Notes: generated from the letters alone by a model not told the origin. A DNA stretch of 32,000 nucleotides from an uncultured archaeon (GCA_964426185.1 CAYRPF010000006.1:30001-62000), one strand, 5' to 3'. Numbered from the stretch's first letter, positions 3,640 through 22,391 are shown. Made by a program: numbers and translations.

Positions 3640-3729
3640 GAAATTTAAGCACTATTTCTTTAAAAAATGCGTTGTTGGAAGATCAATAAAAAGAAAAAGA
3701 AAAAAAGGATTATAATCAATGTAATAATC

Positions 3730-6700
3730 ATGAATTTTTTGGATTTTTGGAAAGTATTCAGTATTCCTACCACTTTAAATGCTTGGACAATTGGTTTATT
3801 AATTTTCTTTGTGGGCAGTGTTATTTTGGGCTATATTATGATGGCATCTCAAGTAAAAATAGTTAAGAAAGAATTTTGGAAGGGAACAGATACCTTAAAA
3901 TGTTTTATTTTTGGGTTTTTCTTTGGAAGTGCTTTAACCGTTATTGGAACTACAATTATTACCTTCATTTTTGATTTAAACGATTTAGGATATCATGATC
4001 AAGCCATTCTACTAATCCTTCCAATGGTATTTTGCTTAATTTTTGTTAGCATATATCCTCTTATTGAATTTTTATTTATGGCTCATTTTTCACATTATAT
4101 ATCCACTACACCTTTCCAAAAACCATTTGAATCTCTGATTAAAAAATTTCGAAAACCTTGGAGTTATATTATCGCGGTTATTTTATATTTCGTCGTTATG
4201 GTACTTCCAATTATTATTATGGTTGCGGGATTTCAAATTAAATTCATTATCGCTTGGTTAAGTTGGCAGTTAATATATCCCATGATTATCATTCTTTACT
4301 ATGCATCCGTTGGTTATATCATAGCCTTTGGAATTTTTACTATTAGTATTCCATATTTACCGCGATCAACTTTTCTTCATCATGATAAGAGTAAACGAGC
4401 TGTGCAAGAATTTTTCCGAGATCCTGGTACTTATTTTACCTATTTCACCTTATTTTATTCTTATATTTATTTCATTTACCGAACCTATGCTACTCTCACG
4501 AGATTTGATCTAAATTATGTTGCTTATTATCCTCCATGGTATAACGTTGATTGGTCTATTCCTATTTCGTTAGCATTTGCAGTTACTGCATATTATCATC
4601 GATATTGGAAAAGAAAAGTTAAATCCTCCACACAATCTATTTTATTTTCCACTTTTTTAATCGCGGCAATGGGAGTAAACATTATGTTGAATTACTTAAT
4701 TTCCCGTCCATTTGTATTTCAAGAATTATTCGAAAAATGGGTTGTTACTGCTGAACTTTATGATGTACGCGGTTTCAACATATTGGGAAATCCCGTTGGA
4801 GTTTATACGGAGTTAAATTTGATTGGTGTGATCGAAGAATTGATGCTTTTCGTGATTATCTCTTATTTTTTCTTCATTCAAAAAAATCATAAAGCTATTC
4901 GTGATACATTCTTTGGAACGGTGACTTCTTCCGAAGAAAAATTCAATCCTATTCCTGCATTCAACATGATTCGTTTTCAAGACGAATTTGAACAGCAATT
5001 TGCGTACGAATCTTTAGAACGAATGTACACGCGGATTCCTAATAAGCGTGGCTATGATTTCATTCAAAACAGATTTAGATTACCTCTTTTTGATGCACTT
5101 TCAGATCGTTCTCATAGATTTGGATATTATTGGAGTCAAAAACTTCTCACAAAAATAATGTCTGTTTATCCTATGAGGATAGCACCATTAGTCGAAAATG
5201 GATTACAATCTCCCAACAGCGACTTAATTTCTTCGATTTTTCAATGTTTCACCCCTGAAACTTATCTATGTTTGAAAAAAATCGATGAAAAATTAATTCT
5301 ATTTCACCTTAACGGTAGAAATTTAATTCTTAAACAACAAGCTCTAAAGATTTTGCTGTTAAAATACACCAATGAAGAAGATTCTCAACTATCTCCATCA
5401 GATGAGCTATTAGAAGCTGCTCAACGGCTTCTTCTATTTCCTGATTATAATATCCAGAGTATGACTCTTCGTCTATTAGCGAACTTCCCAGAACAGGTTG
5501 ATCATTCTATCTTTCTTTCCCGATTGAATGATCCCATTCCAGTTATTCAAAATTCTGTAGCGCATATTGCAGGCGAAATTGCTAAGGATGAGATCAACTC
5601 ATTAAGTATTCCAAAATTAATTGAAATGGCTTCGGATATTAATCCTAATATTCGTGTAAAAGTTTTAGACACATTAGCAAAAATGGGGAATTTTGAAAAA
5701 AACAACATCCCAATTGAAATCTTCAAAGATAATATGTTTGATCCAAATGATAAGATTCGACAAGTCTCCTTTCATGGATTGAGGGCTTATCTTCAAGAAA
5801 AACCCTACGCAATTTCAGTTAATTATTTATTGGAAATAACAGAAAATACTGAAATTGAAACCCAAAAATACCTTATCACTTTATTCCCCCCAATTTGGAA
5901 GCAAAATCCTTCTAAAATTTTGTCAATTTTGAAAAAATATTTAAAAATGCCTGAGCACAGCCTTTCTCGTTTAGCTCAAGAGCAAATTCTTAAAATGGCT
6001 CAACAAGATCCGCGATTTCTGGTGTCCGAATTGATATATGAATCTGAAACTGAAAGTATTTTGACGCGTGGGAAAATTGCCCAAACAATTCTTCAAATCT
6101 GTTTAAAATTTCCTAAGCAAACTATCCCTCTTTTGATTAAAAACCTCTCTTCTACAAATACTAATGCAAAAATTAATGCTGCTCGTGTATTAACAGATTT
6201 TTCCAAAAATCATACTCTTAACATCCCATTAAAAACTTTAGTTAATATTTGGAGAAATGAACCATCAGAAAACATAAAAAATGAATTAATTCCATTAATT
6301 AAGTATGTTGGGTTAAAAGAGCCTAATAAAATTGCACAATTCATTGAAGATTTTAGTAAAATTTATGCTAAATCAAGTAAAGCTTTAAAACTATCCATTG
6401 CAAAAATGTTTTCCATTTTATCGGCTAAGAATCCAAACCTCATTCCTTTGAAATTGGTTGAGAAGATGGTCGAAGATCCAGAATCTTCCATCCGAGAACA
6501 AGGCTATAATATTTTAAGTAAAATTGAAGACAAAAATTTGAAAAAAAGGATTAATATTTTGAAAAAGGGGTTGAAAGAAGAAGATCTGAACATTAAGAAA
6601 AATGTAATTCAAGATTTAATGAAATTGGCTTTGCACTTAAACGACTCCAAGCTATTTACCAACATTCTCAAATTACTCGATGATTCAAATAAATGGACTA

Positions 6701-7167
6701 GAAAAGCAGTGTGGGATGCTCTTGCATTGTTGGAAAACCAGTCGAAAAATGTATTAGATGTAAAGAAGATCTTGAGCAATATTGATCTAAATACTGAAGT
6801 AGAAGAAGTTATTTATTCCTTTTTAAAATGGGCAGGAATGTTAAGTAAAAATGAATTTGAGCAAATATTTCCTTATATATTGAAATTAATGGAACATGAA
6901 AAGGAATCAATTCGGACTGCTGCAATTTCAACTTTAGTCAGATTATCGGAAAATTTAAAATCCGATCAGATAATTCCACGGTTGCTAAGTTATCTTTCAG
7001 ATGAAACTCCAGTTAGACTGGAAGAATCGGTGGTTTTAGCACTAAACCGGATTGCAAAATATGAGAAAAAAGAAATTAAAGAGCGAGTGATTAGATTATT
7101 AAGTATTCGAGCTCACAACACACAGAATAAAATTTTCCAACATGTTTTAGCAGATTTAAAAAAATAG
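3730..7167 (+). CDS. Polytopic membrane protein fused to a long C-terminal HEAT-repeat solenoid
   Basis: The first ~400 aa contain roughly 9-10 hydrophobic helices. The remainder has repeated HEAT-like units (LNDPIPVIQ, ASDINPNIRVKV, FDPNDKIRQ, VEDPESSIREQG, LDDSNKWTRKAV, MEHEKESIRTAA). The ORF opens at 3667; ATG 3730 is the likelier start. Confidence 0.85.
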   Translation: MNFLDFWKVFSIPTTLNAWTIGLLIFFVGSVILGYIMMASQVKIVKKEFWKGTDTLKCFIFGFFFGSALTVIGTTIITFIFDLNDLGYHDQAILLILPMVFCLIFVSIYPLIEFLFMAHFSHYISTTPFQKPFESLIKKFRKPWSYIIAVILYFVVMVLPIIIMVAGFQIKFIIAWLSWQLIYPMIIILYYASVGYIIAFGIFTISIPYLPRSTFLHHDKSKRAVQEFFRDPGTYFTYFTLFYSYIYFIYRTYATLTRFDLNYVAYYPPWYNVDWSIPISLAFAVTAYYHRYWKRKVKSSTQSILFSTFLIAAMGVNIMLNYLISRPFVFQELFEKWVVTAELYDVRGFNILGNPVGVYTELNLIGVIEELMLFVIISYFFFIQKNHKAIRDTFFGTVTSSEEKFNPIPAFNMIRFQDEFEQQFAYESLERMYTRIPNKRGYDFIQNRFRLPLFDALSDRSHRFGYYWSQKLLTKIMSVYPMRIAPLVENGLQSPNSDLISSIFQCFTPETYLCLKKIDEKLILFHLNGRNLILKQQALKILLLKYTNEEDSQLSPSDELLEAAQRLLLFPDYNIQSMTLRLLANFPEQVDHSIFLSRLNDPIPVIQNSVAHIAGEIAKDEINSLSIPKLIEMASDINPNIRVKVLDTLAKMGNFEKNNIPIEIFKDNMFDPNDKIRQVSFHGLRAYLQEKPYAISVNYLLEITENTEIETQKYLITLFPPIWKQNPSKILSILKKYLKMPEHSLSRLAQEQILKMAQQDPRFLVSELIYESETESILTRGKIAQTILQICLKFPKQTIPLLIKNLSSTNTNAKINAARVLTDFSKNHTLNIPLKTLVNIWRNEPSENIKNELIPLIKYVGLKEPNKIAQFIEDFSKIYAKSSKALKLSIAKMFSILSAKNPNLIPLKLVEKMVEDPESSIREQGYNILSKIEDKNLKKRINILKKGLKEEDLNIKKNVIQDLMKLALHLNDSKLFTNILKLLDDSNKWTRKAVWDALALLENQSKNVLDVKKILSNIDLNTEVEEVIYSFLKWAGMLSKNEFEQIFPYILKLMEHEKESIRTAAISTLVRLSENLKSDQIIPRLLSYLSDETPVRLEESVVLALNRIAKYEKKEIKERVIRLLSIRAHNTQNKIFQHVLADLKK

Positions 7168-16466: not shown

Positions 16467-16530
16467 GATTTTTTTAATTTTTAGGTAAGATTTTTCTTTC
16501 TTTTTCAATGTTCTTTCTTCTTCTCCTAAA

Positions 16531-16635
16531 TTCTCATTTCATCATTTTCTAATGATATTGTGTGGTTTGTAATACTACATTGCATCAAAGTGGTGATAAA
16601 TAGCACAATATTACAGTGAAATGATGAAATGAGAA
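16531..16635. repeat. Long imperfect inverted repeat (about 105 bp hairpin) between convergent genes
   Basis: ttctcatttcatcattt (16531-16547) is the exact reverse complement of aaatgatgaaatgagaa (16619-16635). An inner stem atattgtg (16555-16562) pairs with cacaatat (16604-16611). Confidence 0.85.
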
Positions 16636-16674
16636 AAATTACGGGATGCATTCAGAAAAATGCAATTTTGGGTG

Positions 16675-16881
16675 TTAAATTAAATATCTGAATATATACT
16701 TGATGATTTTCTGACCGTTGGAAAAATATTCATCTGTATGTTCTTTAGCTATTTTTGGAATTATTTGTTCCCAAGTATAATCCAACACATCCGAAACACT
16801 ATGAATTTGCCGTGATAATTGGGAAATTTCATTTACTAATCTTTCTGGGGCAATTTTTGCTCTTTTTGCTAATTCGGTCAT
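16675..16881 (-). CDS. Small hypothetical helical protein (68 aa), probable last gene of the acyltransferase/activase operon
   Basis: ATG preceded by SD-like GAGTGA (minus strand aaagagtgattattaATG), 30 bp after the activase stop, with amphipathic helical composition. Confidence 0.5.
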   Translation of the reverse strand: MTELAKRAKIAPERLVNEISQLSRQIHSVSDVLDYTWEQIIPKIAKEHTDEYFSNGQKIIKYIFRYLI

Positions 16882-16911
16882 TAATAATCACTCTTTAACA
16901 AATTGTGTAAA

Positions 16912-18039
16912 TTAATATACCGCCCATTTACCGCATCGATCTCCCCAACGAGCAACCAATTCTTTCTTCTTCTTTCCGTCTTTTTCATCTGTGTTGTGCA
17001 TATAAACGGATACAACTTCACATCGATTAGGACAACCTTGACATTGAAAAGTTTTAGTTTCAAAATCGAAATGTAATAAACCAAATCCACGAAATTGTGT
17101 TTTCCAACTACCAGTCATTTTACGCGTGCGTTCTGCTTCTTCTTTCACTAATAATGCTGCACCATATGCTCCCATCATAATGTTTAATCCATCTTTGGGA
17201 ACAATAACTTTCTTATGAAGTTCTTCTTCGAATGCTTTAATTAAACCTTCATTAAATGCCACACCACCTTGAAATAATATTGGTTCCTCAATTTCCTTTC
17301 CTTTACCAACATTATTAAGGTAATTTCGAACCAAAGCATCGCATAATCCCCGAATGATGCTTTCTTTTGTATATCCCATTTGAGCTTTGTGAATCATGTC
17401 TGATTCAGCAAAAACTCCGCATCGTCCTGCAATAGTGACATTTTCTTTAGCACGTAGAGCATAATCACCGAATTTTTCTATAGGAATTCCTAATCTGGTA
17501 GCTTGATGATCTAAAAAACTCCCAGTTCCAGCAGCACAAACAGAATTCATAGCAAAATCTGCAACAATTCCATCTCGGAGAATAATAATTTTTGAATCTT
17601 GCCCTCCAATCTCTAAAATGGTACGAACTTCAGGATAATAATGACTGGCGGCTACAGCATGGGCAATAATTTCAGTTTTTGCAATATCTCCACCTACTAC
17701 ACTTTTTATCAGATAGCGCGCCGAACCGGTGGTACCCACTCCAATAATGCGAATTTTTTCTAATATCCCACGTTCTTCTAGTTTTTTTTTTAATTGAGTC
17801 AACCCTTTTTTGGAAGATTCGATTGGACTACCTTGATTTCGTAACCAGAGGCGTTCTACGATATTTTCTTGTTCATCTAATAAGAGTATTTTGATAGATA
17901 CCGATCCAATATCGATCCCCATATATACATTTCGGATCTTTTGAAATTTCCCTTGTTTATTGATTTGTATTTTGGATACTTCTGAATCAATTTGGACAGT
18001 AGTCGCAAGGTTAGTTTTTTCTAGCTCTGGTTTTTCCAT
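16912..18039 (-). CDS. ATP-dependent acyl-CoA dehydratase/reductase activase (BcrAD/BadFG, HgdC-like ASKHA ATPase) with an extra C-terminal Cys motif; PlsA/Ger activation-domain-like
   Basis: GIDIGSVSIK, GTTGSAR, TEIIAH, EIGGQDSK, MNSVCAAGTGSFLD, IAGRCGVFAESD, QGGVAFN, and C-terminal FQCQGCPNRC...WGDRC. Confidence 0.92.
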   Translation of the reverse strand: MEKPELEKTNLATTVQIDSEVSKIQINKQGKFQKIRNVYMGIDIGSVSIKILLLDEQENIVERLWLRNQGSPIESSKKGLTQLKKKLEERGILEKIRIIGVGTTGSARYLIKSVVGGDIAKTEIIAHAVAASHYYPEVRTILEIGGQDSKIIILRDGIVADFAMNSVCAAGTGSFLDHQATRLGIPIEKFGDYALRAKENVTIAGRCGVFAESDMIHKAQMGYTKESIIRGLCDALVRNYLNNVGKGKEIEEPILFQGGVAFNEGLIKAFEEELHKKVIVPKDGLNIMMGAYGAALLVKEEAERTRKMTGSWKTQFRGFGLLHFDFETKTFQCQGCPNRCEVVSVYMHNTDEKDGKKKKELVARWGDRCGKWAVY

Positions 18040-19328
18040 TAATTATCACTATCTTCCTTACTATTTTTTTCTGTGGCTTTCGTATTAAAAATCTCCGATA
18101 ATAAAATATTGAAGTTATTGGCAATTGGGGTGAGTAATTCATCAAATAATGGATTTTTTTTAGCTTTTGAGAGGTGTTGATCATAAATTTTTCCAATTTC
18201 ATGAGGTTCTTGGTATTTCCCTTTGAAGCGTGGATTTTCTTGGCGATTGGATTTCATTAAATCGATAAAACTTTCTAAACGTGTGCGCATCCCTTCGTAT
18301 CCTGTATGTTCATCAATGCTATAGAACTGAATTGGTAAATAAAATGGATCAGGACTTTGCCCTTCTAGAATCCCACGCGCAGTGTTTTCAGGCATGCAAG
18401 TAAAAGGATATAAATGAATAAAACCATCAAATCCCAGTTGCTGGGCTTCAATATAATGTCCTACTACCCACATGGCTTCTCCTCCAATATCTAAAGGAAT
18501 GTAAGGTTTTGAAAAACGTTCTAACTTTTTTCGTTCTAAATTAATGTGCAACTTATGAAGAATCCAGTCATATAAGCTATTTGCTAAATGGACTTCAATC
18601 CCTTCTTCTCCAAATTTCCGAACAATATCCATATTTACGAAAGGTTCCATGACTATATGATTTTCTCCCGTTACTACAATCCGTAAAGGTTCAATATCCC
18701 TTTTAATTGGAATTTTTCGGAATTCTTCTTGGATAATTTGGCTGAAATTATGAAGTTTATATAAATCCCACTCCTCATCCAGTCGATCCATTAATATTTT
18801 CACAGTTTGGGTTGTATTTCCTTTATGAATTTCTCTACATCGTACTAAGCCCTCTAAACGAGTTATATCTGCAATATGGCTCATTTTTGATAGGGCTAAG
18901 CGGGTACAGTTGATTATGTCAAAATATTTCATGAGTGGATCTGTTATGTTTGTCAATTGAAGCAGAGTTTTCGTCCATTTGAAATTAAGCAGGTTATCTT
19001 GTTGTATAGGAATGATTTCTACATCGTATCCTAAATCTTTTAAGATTTTTTCTTGAATTGGGGCATAAAATCCAAGCCGACACGGACCACAATCGATTGA
19101 CATCACAAAAGTATGAATATCGTGATTTTTAATCATGTTAATGAATTCACCTAATGTCACCTTGAAAGGAAAGCAGACGAATTCCGGTGAAACTTTGGCT
19201 CCCATTTTTATTACGTCACGGGTTACAGGTGGTGGTGGAAACACTGTCACTCCTGGTAATTTCTCAAATAGTGCTCGAAATGCAATTCGACTCCAGCCCA
19301 TAGAAGGAAAACTTATTAATTTGCCCAT
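18039..19328 (-). CDS. 2-hydroxyacyl-CoA dehydratase (HGD-D)-like Fe-S subunit ('CoA protein activase'), PlsR-like
   Basis: PEFVCFPFKVTLGEF, GPCRLGFY, IVVTGE, GFDGFIHLYPFTCMPE, IDEHTGYEGMRTRLESFID. Its stop overlaps the next start (TAATG). Confidence 0.88.
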   Translation of the reverse strand: MGKLISFPSMGWSRIAFRALFEKLPGVTVFPPPPVTRDVIKMGAKVSPEFVCFPFKVTLGEFINMIKNHDIHTFVMSIDCGPCRLGFYAPIQEKILKDLGYDVEIIPIQQDNLLNFKWTKTLLQLTNITDPLMKYFDIINCTRLALSKMSHIADITRLEGLVRCREIHKGNTTQTVKILMDRLDEEWDLYKLHNFSQIIQEEFRKIPIKRDIEPLRIVVTGENHIVMEPFVNMDIVRKFGEEGIEVHLANSLYDWILHKLHINLERKKLERFSKPYIPLDIGGEAMWVVGHYIEAQQLGFDGFIHLYPFTCMPENTARGILEGQSPDPFYLPIQFYSIDEHTGYEGMRTRLESFIDLMKSNRQENPRFKGKYQEPHEIGKIYDQHLSKAKKNPLFDELLTPIANNFNILLSEIFNTKATEKNSKEDSDN

Positions 19329-19343
19329 TAGAATTTCTCCGTT

Positions 19344-20426
19344 TTATTTGTTATAAGGTTCGTTTGATTTTGTTTCTAAGAGATGTGAGTATTTTTTTCT
19401 GCGGATCATATCTACAAATGATTCTATCCGTGTTACCATTCCAGATTCACCCGAATGTTCATCGAGAATTAAAGTTAAGAATGGAATTTTGCGGGTTTTC
19501 ATATCTCGCATTACTAATTCTTCTATAAGACTATCTGGACCACATGAAAAAGAAATCAGAAAAATAACTCCATCGATTTCACTTTTTCCCTCTGTTAAGT
19601 AATATCTAGCGGTTTTTAGAATTTCATCTTCACTCTGCCAATATTGTTCATAGATTTTATTAATTTTTACTGGTTTTTTGAATTTTTCTGGATGAGTATC
19701 TTCAATTGTTAAAATACGGCAATCTAATGTTTTCAATCGTTCAATAAGATGCATATTAATATAAGATTCATAGACATTGTAGGGGTGTCCCAGAAGAAGA
19801 ATAGAAAGAGGAAATTTTCCTCGAATTTTTTCAGCAATCATTTCATGAAATTTTCTTTTTTTAAGAACATGGCTTGGATTTTCATCGAAACTTGCTAAGA
19901 TATCCAAGTAATTAGTAGAATTCATCTGGGATTGCAGTTCTTTAAATTTTTTGAGAGCAATTACCCAAGTTTTCCCCGAATCTTCAGCTGAATATCCTAA
20001 TTCTTTTCCCATATTGATAGCGCCCTCAATTCCGTATTGCTTTTTTGCATTAACTTCAAGTGTTAATATTGGAACTGGTAATTTCATTCCATATTTGATG
20101 GTTTCAGGCAATGTCAAGAATTTTGGGCAATAATATTGATTATGATGAATGGAAACATATCGAGGGATGAAAATATAATCTAAATCTGGGTTTTCTTCAA
20201 GAAGGGCATGCACATGTCCGAAATATAGCTTCATCGGAACGCAAAGTTCGGAAACTGCTTGTTTTGCTCCAAATTCCACTATTTTGGCTGTAGTTGGTGG
20301 AGAAATTACTACTTCACATTGAAATTGGCGGAGTAAATATATCCATAATGGACCATAGCGGTAAAAATAAAGTGCTCTCGGGATCCCTACTTTTAATTTT
20401 CGTATGAAATTCTCATTTTCTACCAT
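19344..20426 (-). CDS. DUF2229 acyl-CoA dehydratase activase-related Fe-S subunit
   Basis: KVGIPRALYFY, ELCVPMKLYFGHV, YYCPKF, LLGHPYNVY, SFSCGPDS, LDEHSGESGMVTRIESFVD. Confidence 0.9.
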   Translation of the reverse strand: MVENENFIRKLKVGIPRALYFYRYGPLWIYLLRQFQCEVVISPPTTAKIVEFGAKQAVSELCVPMKLYFGHVHALLEENPDLDYIFIPRYVSIHHNQYYCPKFLTLPETIKYGMKLPVPILTLEVNAKKQYGIEGAINMGKELGYSAEDSGKTWVIALKKFKELQSQMNSTNYLDILASFDENPSHVLKKRKFHEMIAEKIRGKFPLSILLLGHPYNVYESYINMHLIERLKTLDCRILTIEDTHPEKFKKPVKINKIYEQYWQSEDEILKTARYYLTEGKSEIDGVIFLISFSCGPDSLIEELVMRDMKTRKIPFLTLILDEHSGESGMVTRIESFVDMIRRKKYSHLLETKSNEPYNK

Positions 20427-21251
20427 TTAATTTATACTCCCTGATTGATTCTCCTTTTTTCTATCTTCAACTTCAGCCCATAAGTCTGTCCATAAGCTTT
20501 TGATTTTTCGTTTTACTTTTTTGTTAATTTTCTCTAAAAGCCGATAATCTAACTCGTGACTTTCTTTAAAGAGAGAATCGGGCAATAACGGTTTCCCAAA
20601 GCGAAGCAAAATTTTCCCTTTAATGGCAGGAATTTTCATCTTTGGACCAAAAACACGATCTGTTCCGAAAATTGCTAAAGGAATTATAGGTACACGACTT
20701 TCAAACGCAACACGAATATATTCTGGATAAAAGGGTAATAGATTTCCATTTCCTCGATTGGGTCGCATTTCAGGATATAGGATTATCCATTTATGTTGTT
20801 CCAAGTGTTCAATACATTCTTCTATGGCATTTTCTTCTAAATCTGCAGTACGTGAGAAAATAGCTTGATTGATTCGTACAAGATTCATCATCATGGAATC
20901 CACCCCTAATCTCATAGGGAGAACATGATATGGAATTTTTTTCATCTTATGCATAATACTAATCCCACAAATGATGGGATCTAAAACTGACTGAAAATTT
21001 GCAACAAATAACGCTCCTTTTGAAGTAAATGTTTCTAAATGCTCTATATCAGAAATTTCCAAACCATATTGCGTAGTAAAAAGCCTCCATAAAAGCGGTT
21101 CTTCAATACCTCGAAGAAAAAGACCGTCAATTGCTTCTAAATATCCAATTTTTTTTGTCACTTGTCGAAGGCCGTAGATATTATTATTCAGAGGGTCAAT
21201 AATATATTTTCTAAGGAAATCCATACCGAAATTTTCCGTCATTGTAAACAC
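20427..21251 (-). CDS. PlsC/LPLAT-family acyltransferase homologue with a degenerate catalytic motif
   Basis: Fold motifs GALFVANFQSVLD, IILYPEM, VPIIPLAIFG and ILLRFGKPL are present. The HX4D His is replaced by Phe and FPEGT by YPEMR. Its stop abuts the next ATG. Confidence 0.85.
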   Translation of the reverse strand: MFTMTENFGMDFLRKYIIDPLNNNIYGLRQVTKKIGYLEAIDGLFLRGIEEPLLWRLFTTQYGLEISDIEHLETFTSKGALFVANFQSVLDPIICGISIMHKMKKIPYHVLPMRLGVDSMMMNLVRINQAIFSRTADLEENAIEECIEHLEQHKWIILYPEMRPNRGNGNLLPFYPEYIRVAFESRVPIIPLAIFGTDRVFGPKMKIPAIKGKILLRFGKPLLPDSLFKESHELDYRLLEKINKKVKRKIKSLWTDLWAEVEDRKKENQSGSIN

Positions 21252-21271
21252 TTCCCAAACATGCAGTAAAA

Positions 21272-22306
21272 CTAAGAAATACTTAGATTATCCATCTCAG
21301 ACGGTACCTTTTTCTTGGACTTTTCATTATACATTTCTGGAATTGATGTTTCACTGGTTGTTGCAACATCTTCTTTAACTAAATTACTCTGATTATTCAA
21401 GATCTCAACCGGAGCAATATCTTCTTTAGAGCGAATTATTCTAGATTTGTTCATTTTTCCAGAAAGTAGCAAAATGACATCATTCCGCATCGCTTCTTTA
21501 ATTAATTCAGCATTTTCAATATTTGGCGCCAAGGATGGATCAATATAAACAGGATTTCCAATAACCACTGAGATTTTATATCCTTTATTCCAACGGATGC
21601 CTAACACATTTACATGCTTAGGAAACACTTTAAAGGCACCAAAAATTGCACAAGGCACATAAGGAACTCCTGTTTCGAGACACAAACGGGCTGCCCCTTT
21701 TCGAAATGGGCCTAATTTGCCATCTGGTGATCGAGTTCCTTCCGGAAACATCCCCACACACCCCCCTCCTTCCAAGACAGAACGAACCTTAGTTAAGGCA
21801 GCTTCATCTTTCTGTTCTCTTTTTAAAGGTATTGTGCCAAAGGGCTTAATTATTGAGCGAAAAATGGGAATTTCGAAATTTTCTGCTTTAGAAAGCCATT
21901 GTACTTTTCTGTGAACAGCTGATCCTACTAAGAAAGGATCAAATTCTGATTGATGATTTGCAATTACCAGAGCACCACCGTGTTCGGGAAAATTTTCTTT
22001 ACCCTTTATCTCATAACCCCAGAAAGTGCGGAAAAATTGAATGAAATTGGCTCTTCCAACATTCCAATAGATAAATTCATCATAAATCTCTAGTATTCCC
22101 AATTCATTCAAGAATTTTCTTCCCCAGTCACAAATAGGGTCAAATGGATTATACTTTAAAAGAAGCTTGAGAATTCCGGAGGTGACGGAAGATAATGTAG
22201 GTTTTGAAGAAATTTGTGCTTTTTTTTGCATAGTTAGTTTATTATCGGGCTTATTGCCCGATCTATCTATTGAATCTTCGTTTTCTGGCACCGTAACAAC
22301 CTCCAT
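21272..22306 (-). CDS. plsC: 1-acyl-sn-glycerol-3-phosphate acyltransferase (PlsC/LPLAT family)
   Basis: Intact NHQSEFD (HX4D), LSKAENF, IPLKR, MFPEGTRS, FRKGAARL, VPYVPCAI and VVIGNPV; low-complexity N- and C-terminal tails. Confidence 0.93.
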   Translation of the reverse strand: MEVVTVPENEDSIDRSGNKPDNKLTMQKKAQISSKPTLSSVTSGILKLLLKYNPFDPICDWGRKFLNELGILEIYDEFIYWNVGRANFIQFFRTFWGYEIKGKENFPEHGGALVIANHQSEFDPFLVGSAVHRKVQWLSKAENFEIPIFRSIIKPFGTIPLKREQKDEAALTKVRSVLEGGGCVGMFPEGTRSPDGKLGPFRKGAARLCLETGVPYVPCAIFGAFKVFPKHVNVLGIRWNKGYKISVVIGNPVYIDPSLAPNIENAELIKEAMRNDVILLLSGKMNKSRIIRSKEDIAPVEILNNQSNLVKEDVATTSETSIPEMYNEKSKKKVPSEMDNLSIS

Positions 22307-22391
22307 AAATGGGAAATTTACTCAAATCACTATCTAGTTGAATGTGATTTAACGTGATGAATCCTCTGTGCTTTATAAATTTATCAAAAAA

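Follow-up and report, generated by a model that had tools for sequence, protein, structure and literature searches.

Ger, for which an ATP-driven reduction of the ester carbonyl has been proposed, contains two activase domains and a DUF2229 domain (the BBD architecture), followed by smaller D and HGD-D pieces (PMC13159169). PlsA/PlsR represents the two-gene form (PMC13159169, PMC8788747), and the BBD architecture is conserved in all confirmed alkyl-ether producers (PMC13159169). Bacillota have additional PlsA homologues that lack an activase domain, and a 2026 paper describes what they do as unclear (PMC13274423). Ger homologues have already been reported in Lokiarchaeota, including P. syntrophicum (PMC13159169), and PlsC homologues in Lokiarchaeota have been published as well (PMC6737245). 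Here we describe an operon in a 32,000-nucleotide stretch of DNA from an uncultured archaeon (GCA_964426185.1, CAYRPF010000006.1:30001-62000, the whole of which is termed the window), in which two PlsC-family acyltransferase genes precede a three-gene module for a DUF2229 subunit, its paralogous partner and an ATP-dependent activase. PlsC and Ger homologues in Asgard archaea were known separately; we found no published report linking DUF2229 with acyltransferases in an operon. Our leading hypothesis, to which we assign a probability of about 0.4, is that the operon represents a Lokiarchaeia-specific coupling of acyl-ester formation to ATP-driven reduction, which would lead to vinyl or alkyl ether lipids.

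The module shares with PlsA/PlsR of Clostridium perfringens (a single gene in Enterococcus faecalis) the activase, the Cys-rich linker, DUF2229 and a second paralogous Fe–S domain. A split between the DUF2229 part (D) and its partner (R) exists there too, the host is likewise anaerobic, and relatives of the operon adjoin a BBD+R pair. The locus differs from PlsA/PlsR in that it encodes three polypeptides in the order D-R-activase, has one activase domain instead of two, and is linked to acyltransferases, a linkage absent from the surveyed bacterial loci. Ger (Tmari_0479 of Thermotoga maritima, and Desulfatibacillum alkenivorans) resembles the module in its domain types and in the proposed reaction, whereas Ger is a fused protein beginning with BBD and the window encodes separate subunits.

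The operon comprises six co-oriented open reading frames (ORFs) on the minus strand, from 22306 to 16675, with successive gaps of 20, 0, 15, -1 and 30 bp. The ORF listing matches exactly the coordinates and spacings given in an initial annotation, which had described five co-oriented genes and a 68-aa ORF. The first two genes are plsC1, encoding an LPLAT/PlsC-family acyltransferase (21272..22306, 344 aa, PF01553), and plsC2, encoding a degenerate second acyltransferase (20427..21251, 274 aa, PF01553). They are followed by the genes for the alpha-like DUF2229 subunit (19344..20426, 360 aa, PF09989), the paralogous beta- or PlsR-like subunit (18039..19328, 429 aa) and a BcrAD/BadFG, HgdC-like ATP-dependent activase with a C-terminal four-Cys extension (16912..18039, 375 aa, PF01869). 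The stop codon of plsC2 directly abuts the ATG of the DUF2229 gene (TAAATG), and the activase start overlaps the stop of the 429-aa gene by 1 nt. In the database gene call plsC2 begins three codons later (271 aa), which widens the first gap to 29 bp.

The order plsC-(plsC')-DUF2229-partner-activase recurs in 20 loci of relatives from two families. A wider locus scan, using an alignment of 13 rows as the query, yielded 80 named loci, nine archaeal and 71 bacterial. An acyltransferase gene lies directly 5' of the DUF2229 gene in eight of the nine archaeal loci; in the 71 bacterial loci (from Bacillota, Dehalococcoidia, Atribacterota, Actinomycetota, Gastranaerophilales and others) no such gene lies within 6 kb, though nearly all keep the D-R-activase trio. 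Over all distinct archaeal loci, the acyltransferase is present in 26 of 29, at identities down to ~43%, so the plsC linkage is not unique to this genome. Because the adjacency is kept down to this level of identity, the survey argues for an arrangement that is not due to chance and is under selection, with the reservation that these kin are not independent. The initial annotation had proposed a lipid-type rather than an amino-acid-fermentation substrate, and the conserved acyltransferase/DUF2229 synteny argues in the same direction. Among 251 genomes sampled from the phylum, two of three of family f1, 49 of 62 of family f3 and the single one of family f5, all three families in the window's class, have orthologues (E <= 1e-70); none was found in the ~185 genomes of 24 other families.

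The true nearest relatives of the module are the bacterial split DUF2229 modules ('acyl-CoA dehydratase activase-related protein' together with a paralogue and an activase) of Bacillota, Chloroflexota, Atribacterota, Actinomycetota and others, with 29-41% identity. They agree with the module in their three genes, gene order and invariant Cys residues, and differ in that all 71 loci are free of nearby acyltransferases. The recurrent neighbours of these bacterial modules give no substrate clue. The genes spoVAC/spoVAD/spoVAEB or gerA stand beside the split module in 7-10 phylogenetically related Bacillota loci (for example L074:2760-3770, L069:180-629 and L075:4419-6005); otherwise nothing beyond generic genes occurs in at least five loci. 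For Moorella thermoacetica, Heliophilum fasciatum and Caloranaerobacter azorensis (G267, G269 and G270; loci L075, L103 and L112), a fused-BBD query matched split-type proteins and stand-alone activases only, and revealed no full BBD protein in the three genomes.

The first acyltransferase, plsC1, matches PF01553 at 106.8 bits against a cut-off of 23. It contains the HX4D motif (H118...D123, NHQSEFD) and the FPEGTR sequence of motif III, both kept in all orthologues. The protein aligns across the catalytic core with T. maritima PlsC (5KYM; 65.8 bits, E 3.5e-17), from which it differs by being longer at the N- and C-terminus. For TIGR00530 it scores 96.3 bits, slightly under the cut-off of 102.95, and a two-domain fused relative reaches 160.9. 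Judged by its motifs, plsC1 is a catalytically intact LPLAT/PlsC-type acyltransferase.

The second acyltransferase, plsC2, is still recognised as a member of the fold family (PF01553, 51.6 bits), and it differs from the PlsC system in having lost the catalytic His. FQSVLD stands in place of HX4D and YPEMRP in place of FPEGTR, which bears out the pseudo-enzyme proposed in the initial annotation. The protein evolves fast, with just four word-sharing relatives. Replacement of the His of the second acyltransferase is seen in two genera only, the window's own (H to F) and that of locus L015 (H to S); other genera and every fused C-terminal domain retain it, and a third genus has lost the second acyltransferase gene entirely. 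Since this loss is confined to few genera and both HX4D motifs are intact in the fused proteins of family f3, the motif comparison identifies the pseudo-PlsC as a derived, recent, genus-level degeneration of an ancestrally active second acyltransferase. Complex predictions of plsC2 with the DUF2229 subunit and with the 429-aa subunit both scored 0.00, which is uninformative either way.

The DUF2229 subunit matches PF09989 at 150.8 bits over positions 1-215 of the 218-position profile. Three of its residues, Cys62, Cys100 and Cys295, do not vary across 47 sequences, which include Asgard, bacterial and fused proteins and the D domains of BBD proteins. The AF2 model (pLDDT 93) has a fold similar to DCCP, HadBC and BzdNO at TM ~0.5. 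The acyltransferases, DUF2229 and the activase of the initial annotation are all recovered by Pfam, but its 'HGD-D-like subunit', the 429-aa protein, is not detected as HGD-D; Pfam gives a weak N-terminal DUF2229 match alone (33.5 bits). By hhalign this protein is related to the DUF2229 family with 99.8% probability (E 5e-29). Across 25 sequences, among them the 469/474-aa PlsR-like proteins and the C-terminal domain of a fused 1454-aa protein encoded elsewhere in the genome, its Cys52, Cys83 and Cys311 do not vary. The top 20 fold matches of its model (pLDDT 83) are all DCCP, HadBC, BzdNO or MbdON. On the strength of hhalign, the shared Cys residues and the predicted fold, the 429-aa protein is a paralogue of the DUF2229 subunit and a PlsR-like Fe–S domain.

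The activase matches PF01869 (157.4 bits) and exceeds the cut-off of TIGR00241 with 188.9 bits. Cys168 and Cys207 are invariant and correspond to the two cluster-binding Cys residues of the HgdC type. In addition, the C-terminal tail contains an invariant CxxCxxxC...C motif (Cys333, Cys336, Cys340 and Cys369), which is common to the second activase domain of the long fused BBD proteins. From these parts together we infer that the module is an ATP-driven activator feeding a heterodimeric core with two clusters, as in the 2-hydroxyacyl-CoA dehydratase/benzoyl-CoA reductase (BCR) superfamily.

HadBC with HadI, DCCP with DCCP-R, and BzdNO share with the module the subunit fold, the paralogous two-subunit core and the HgdC-type ATP-dependent activator. 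For both core subunits, Foldseek matches to DCCP, HadBC, BzdNO and MbdON have E values of 1e-8 to 1e-10 and TM ~0.5, at just 10-16% identity. DCCP (6ENO) has six cluster-ligating Cys in one subunit. Each core subunit of the module has three invariant Cys instead of six, and DCCP is still the top Foldseek match. The module further differs from these enzymes in the extra four-Cys tail of its activase and in its lipid-gene, rather than fermentation-gene, context. The HGD-D family (PF06050) reaches only 24.1 bits on the tail of the DUF2229 subunit (cut-off 28.4), confined to residues 281-341. The class I benzoyl-CoA reductase models of NCBIfam score 104, 94 and 79 bits on the activase against cut-offs of 578, 380 and 313, and no NCBIfam benzoyl-CoA reductase model matches either core subunit. 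The best PDB sequence matches have E values of about 1e-3. Because the HGD-D match is below threshold and limited to the last 60 residues, and the BCR equivalogs stay far under their cut-offs, these profile comparisons indicate that the module does not consist of genuine HgdAB or BcrBC subunits.

These results bear directly on the view that the module is an ordinary fermentation enzyme of the 2-hydroxyacyl-CoA dehydratase or benzoyl-CoA reductase type, standing beside lipid genes by accident. Lokiarchaeia do ferment amino acids (PMC7015854), the activase family is shared with such enzymes, and a second split module of the genome lies beside DAO/Fer2-type oxidoreductases. This view is nevertheless disfavoured and very improbable, given the sub-threshold PF06050 match, the low BCR scores, the marginal PDB matches, the persistence of the acyltransferase adjacency across divergent archaeal loci and the fusion of the acyltransferases in relatives.

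In the sister family f3, both acyltransferases are fused in one protein of 554-572 aa in which both HX4D motifs are intact. A gene for a HAD-family hydrolase lies 5' of the fused acyltransferase gene in 11 f3 loci, and one f3 locus has a YbgC/4HBT acyl-CoA thioesterase gene directly upstream. In several f3 loci the genes plsCC'-DUF2229 are followed by a BBD protein (977-985 aa) and a 469-474-aa protein; this pair is collinear with the fused 1454-aa protein and matches the two-gene PlsA/PlsR arrangement. As gene context goes, the link between the acyltransferases and the ester-reducing branch is more direct in the f3 loci than in the window by itself. Extended superclusters are seen in this family at L030:3493-11812, L041:5701-15907 and L028:1300-16169, and L028 contains three D-type and three R-type genes within 16 kb. 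Some of them add a FAD_binding_4-DUF2229 fusion of 803-837 aa (L028:5007-7520 in relative G032; P0272 and P0273), whose FAD domain is of the VAO/PCMH type and which sits in a D-activase-R module adjoining the plsC operon. An alkyl-DHAP synthase-like assignment of this FAD domain was considered and rejected, as its best PDB matches are cytokinin dehydrogenases (E 9e-20), with AGPS at E 5e-4. No PlsC-DUF2229 fusion was seen among eight longer relatives, a small sample that makes this negative weak; the fusions present are FAD_binding_4-DUF2229, D-R and B-D only.

According to the leading hypothesis, PlsC1 would esterify an acyl chain onto an acceptor of the glycerol-phosphate type, for which G3P, a lysolipid and a mono-isoprenyl lipid are candidates. 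In the ancestral operon a second, likewise active acyltransferase domain would have contributed; the degenerate plsC2 may now be a structural partner only. The activase probably forms a homodimer in which Cys168/Cys207 hold a bridging [4Fe-4S] cluster and the four-Cys tail adds a further site; driven by ATP hydrolysis, it would deliver low-potential electrons to the heterodimer formed by the DUF2229 and 429-aa subunits. Each subunit of the heterodimer is predicted to carry a three-Cys cluster site. The heterodimer would then act on the acylated lipid by reduction of its ester carbonyl and dehydration, to give an alk-1-enyl or alkyl ether. Ether-lipid production by the operon is a pure inference.

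We favour this hypothesis because the synteny is conserved at 26/29 archaeal loci against 0/71 bacterial loci, because the fused acyltransferases of the sister family are intact and are accompanied by the upstream HAD hydrolase or, once, the acyl-CoA thioesterase, and because the loci of several relatives carry the BBD+R pair of the PlsA/PlsR arrangement. The BBD proteins share with the module the four-Cys motif, the three D-domain Cys and the three R-domain Cys. Moreover, the activase exceeds its TIGR00241 cut-off, and plsC1 matches 5KYM with intact motifs.

Alternatively, the reductase may act before acyl transfer, on an acyl-CoA or another activated carbonyl, for instance by radical dehydration or reduction beside a thioester in the manner of HgdAB/HadBC. 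This would supply an unusual acyl donor for the PlsC enzymes to join to a glycerolipid or some other acceptor, and the product would be a modified ester lipid instead of an ether. The solved relatives with organic substrates (HadBC, BzdNO and MbdON) have the same fold and act on CoA thioesters, the thioesterase gene directly upstream in one relative fits such a step, and the wide occurrence of the split family without acyltransferases leaves room for an ancestral substrate other than a lipid ester. However, the DUF2229 profile and the four-Cys tail are common to proteins of the PlsA/Ger architecture and not to HgdABC/BCR, HGD-D is sub-threshold, and the adjacent BBD+R pairs in relatives point to the ester-reducing branch. 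We regard reduction before transfer as the main rival and as unlikely.

Several observations weigh against ether-lipid synthesis by the operon. The D subunit is only 21-23% identical to the D domains of BBD-type proteins. In a tree of 47 D domains, the BBD D domains are separated from the window's subunit by a long branch with 100% support. Function is therefore not transferable by orthology. The fused 1454-aa BBD-type protein encoded elsewhere in the genome could be the true Ger equivalent, and the closest relatives of the module are the bacterial three-gene modules, which have neither a nearby acyltransferase nor a lipid context. PlsY (PF02660) was not found in the 92%-complete genome. In P. 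syntrophicum MK-D1, a member of the same family for which carriage of the operon is not established, ether cleavage gave phytane and biphytanes only, and Imachi et al. judged ester-lipid genes to be absent (PMC7015854).

The same tree places the plsC-linked Asgard proteins as a well-supported group inside a large split-type family, and the D subunit accordingly stands in a clade separate from that of PlsA/PlsR. In this comparison PlsA and Ger are represented by BBD proxies, namely Asgard BBD proteins and the B+BDR pair of Syntrophomonas palmitatica. The nearest non-Asgard relatives of the D subunit are stand-alone proteins of 310-350 aa or D-R fusions of 690-770 aa, and there is no BBD protein among the top 150 representatives related to it. 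The initial annotation had described a split PlsAR/Ger-like module; this identification is not upheld, in view of the separate clade, the low identity to BBD D domains and the bacterial three-gene modules as nearest kin. Set apart through the BBD proxies, the module is by its sequence relationships a distinct paralogous split family of the DUF2229 superfamily.

The genome contains three DUF2229 loci, namely the fused BBD-type protein, the split module of the window and a second split module without acyltransferases. The parts of the window's module are collinear with the fused protein, to which its D subunit is 23% identical. The published survey of Ger accepted only matches that cover 30% or more of Ger (PMC13159169); it would catch the fused 1454-aa type and not the module described here, because split subunits of 360-429 aa cannot reach 30% coverage. 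The gene for the fused protein (L036:5929-12548, contig C31) has a class-III aminotransferase gene on one side and that of a small SAM methyltransferase on the other. The second split module (L037:5805-13130, contig C45) has subunits of 326/349, 382 and 345 aa, with an Arf-family small GTPase in its flank; after it come the genes for a Fer2/Pyr_redox_2/BFD protein and a DAO oxidoreductase.

Regarding the supply of acylated precursors, the genome encodes a GpsA-like dehydrogenase and three PF01553 proteins, two in the operon and one stand-alone on another contig. The first acylation step, if there is any, could be carried out by plsC1 or its partner. The third acyltransferase (271 aa; L136:2695-7486, contig C5) lies near a DNA methylase, a DUF362/4Fe–4S protein and a B12-binding radical SAM protein of 484 aa.

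The missing PlsY also fits a salvage or remodelling role, in which PlsC would re-acylate exogenous bacterial or eukaryotic lysolipids from the sediment or from syntrophic partners, and the Fe–S enzyme would convert them reductively or detoxify them, giving minor or conditional lipids and not bulk membrane components. The cultured relative with isoprenoid lipids only agrees with such a minor or conditional role, and the degeneration or loss of the second acyltransferase in part of the family suggests relaxed selection on a full de novo pathway. Yet the conserved core contains no transporter or lipase, and the two intact acyltransferase domains and HAD phosphatase of the sister family look biosynthetic. 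On balance salvage appears quite unlikely, and de novo ester formation followed by reduction is the reading that we prefer.

The archaeal origin assumed in the initial annotation is confirmed by the flanking genes of the window, which encode L21e, DUF655, KsgA and a GINS subunit. By the names attached to near-identical proteins, the host belongs to the Asgard archaea, class Lokiarchaeia, family Promethearchaeaceae; the genus is probably Ca. Harpocratesius. Only DNA metagenomes from sediment and hydrothermal vents, and no RNA data set, are present among the listed holders of the operon.

The intergenic region upstream of plsC1 (22307..22391, minus strand) was read from the sequence as a candidate promoter region. 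It starts with an oligo-T run behind the stop codon of an M24 peptidase gene, followed by the TATA-like AAATTTATAAAG located ~65 nt 5' of the plsC1 ATG, which may serve as the promoter of the operon. The M24 peptidase was considered as a further operon member and rejected, as its synteny holds within the genus only and the oligo-T run follows it. At the other end, the 68-aa ORF (16675..16881, minus strand) is of uncertain status and has no Pfam or NCBIfam family. Its tblastn matches are restricted to the genus (50% in L013 and 31% in L014), and it was not found 3' of the operon in other genera. Beyond it, a long imperfect hairpin (16531-16635) lies between the convergent ends of the operon and of a 580-aa ORF. 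The minus strand of 16525-16645 folds with -30.3 kcal/mol (z = -5.0), and none of 200 shuffled sequences folds as well. The hairpin is bordered by oligo-T runs and may act as a bidirectional terminator. Elsewhere in the window, positions 3667-7167 encode an 1166-aa protein consisting mostly of HEAT repeats (HEAT_2 71.7 bits, HEAT 61.1 bits), a large, eukaryote-like repeat protein with a weak condensin-II-like match.

One problem of eukaryogenesis is how a host with archaeal isoprenoid ether lipids gained bacterial-type fatty-acyl lipids. The class-wide conservation of the operon provides a concrete five-gene cassette, defined as a gene set and unproven in function, which bears on the possible synthesis of fatty-acid-derived ether lipids by archaea closely related to eukaryotes. 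A fuller set is available from the relatives, in which two active acyltransferase domains are accompanied by a HAD phosphatase and a PlsA/PlsR-like pair. A broader proposal, doubtful at present, is that non-isoprenoid or hybrid glycerol ether lipids are native products of Lokiarchaeia. In this proposal, tandem PlsC-type enzymes would attach fatty acyl chains as esters, with glycerol phosphate or a mono-isoprenyl lysolipid as acceptor, and the esters would be reduced to vinyl or alkyl ethers by at least one DUF2229-type enzyme, for which the candidates are the split module and, clustered with it in relatives, the BBD+R pair and the FAD-fused paralogues. For the large split DUF2229 family, the acyltransferase linkage is also the first hint from gene context at what the substrate might be. 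Should the operon make something other than an ether lipid, it would still define an uncharacterised radical modification tied to acyl transfer in Lokiarchaeia.

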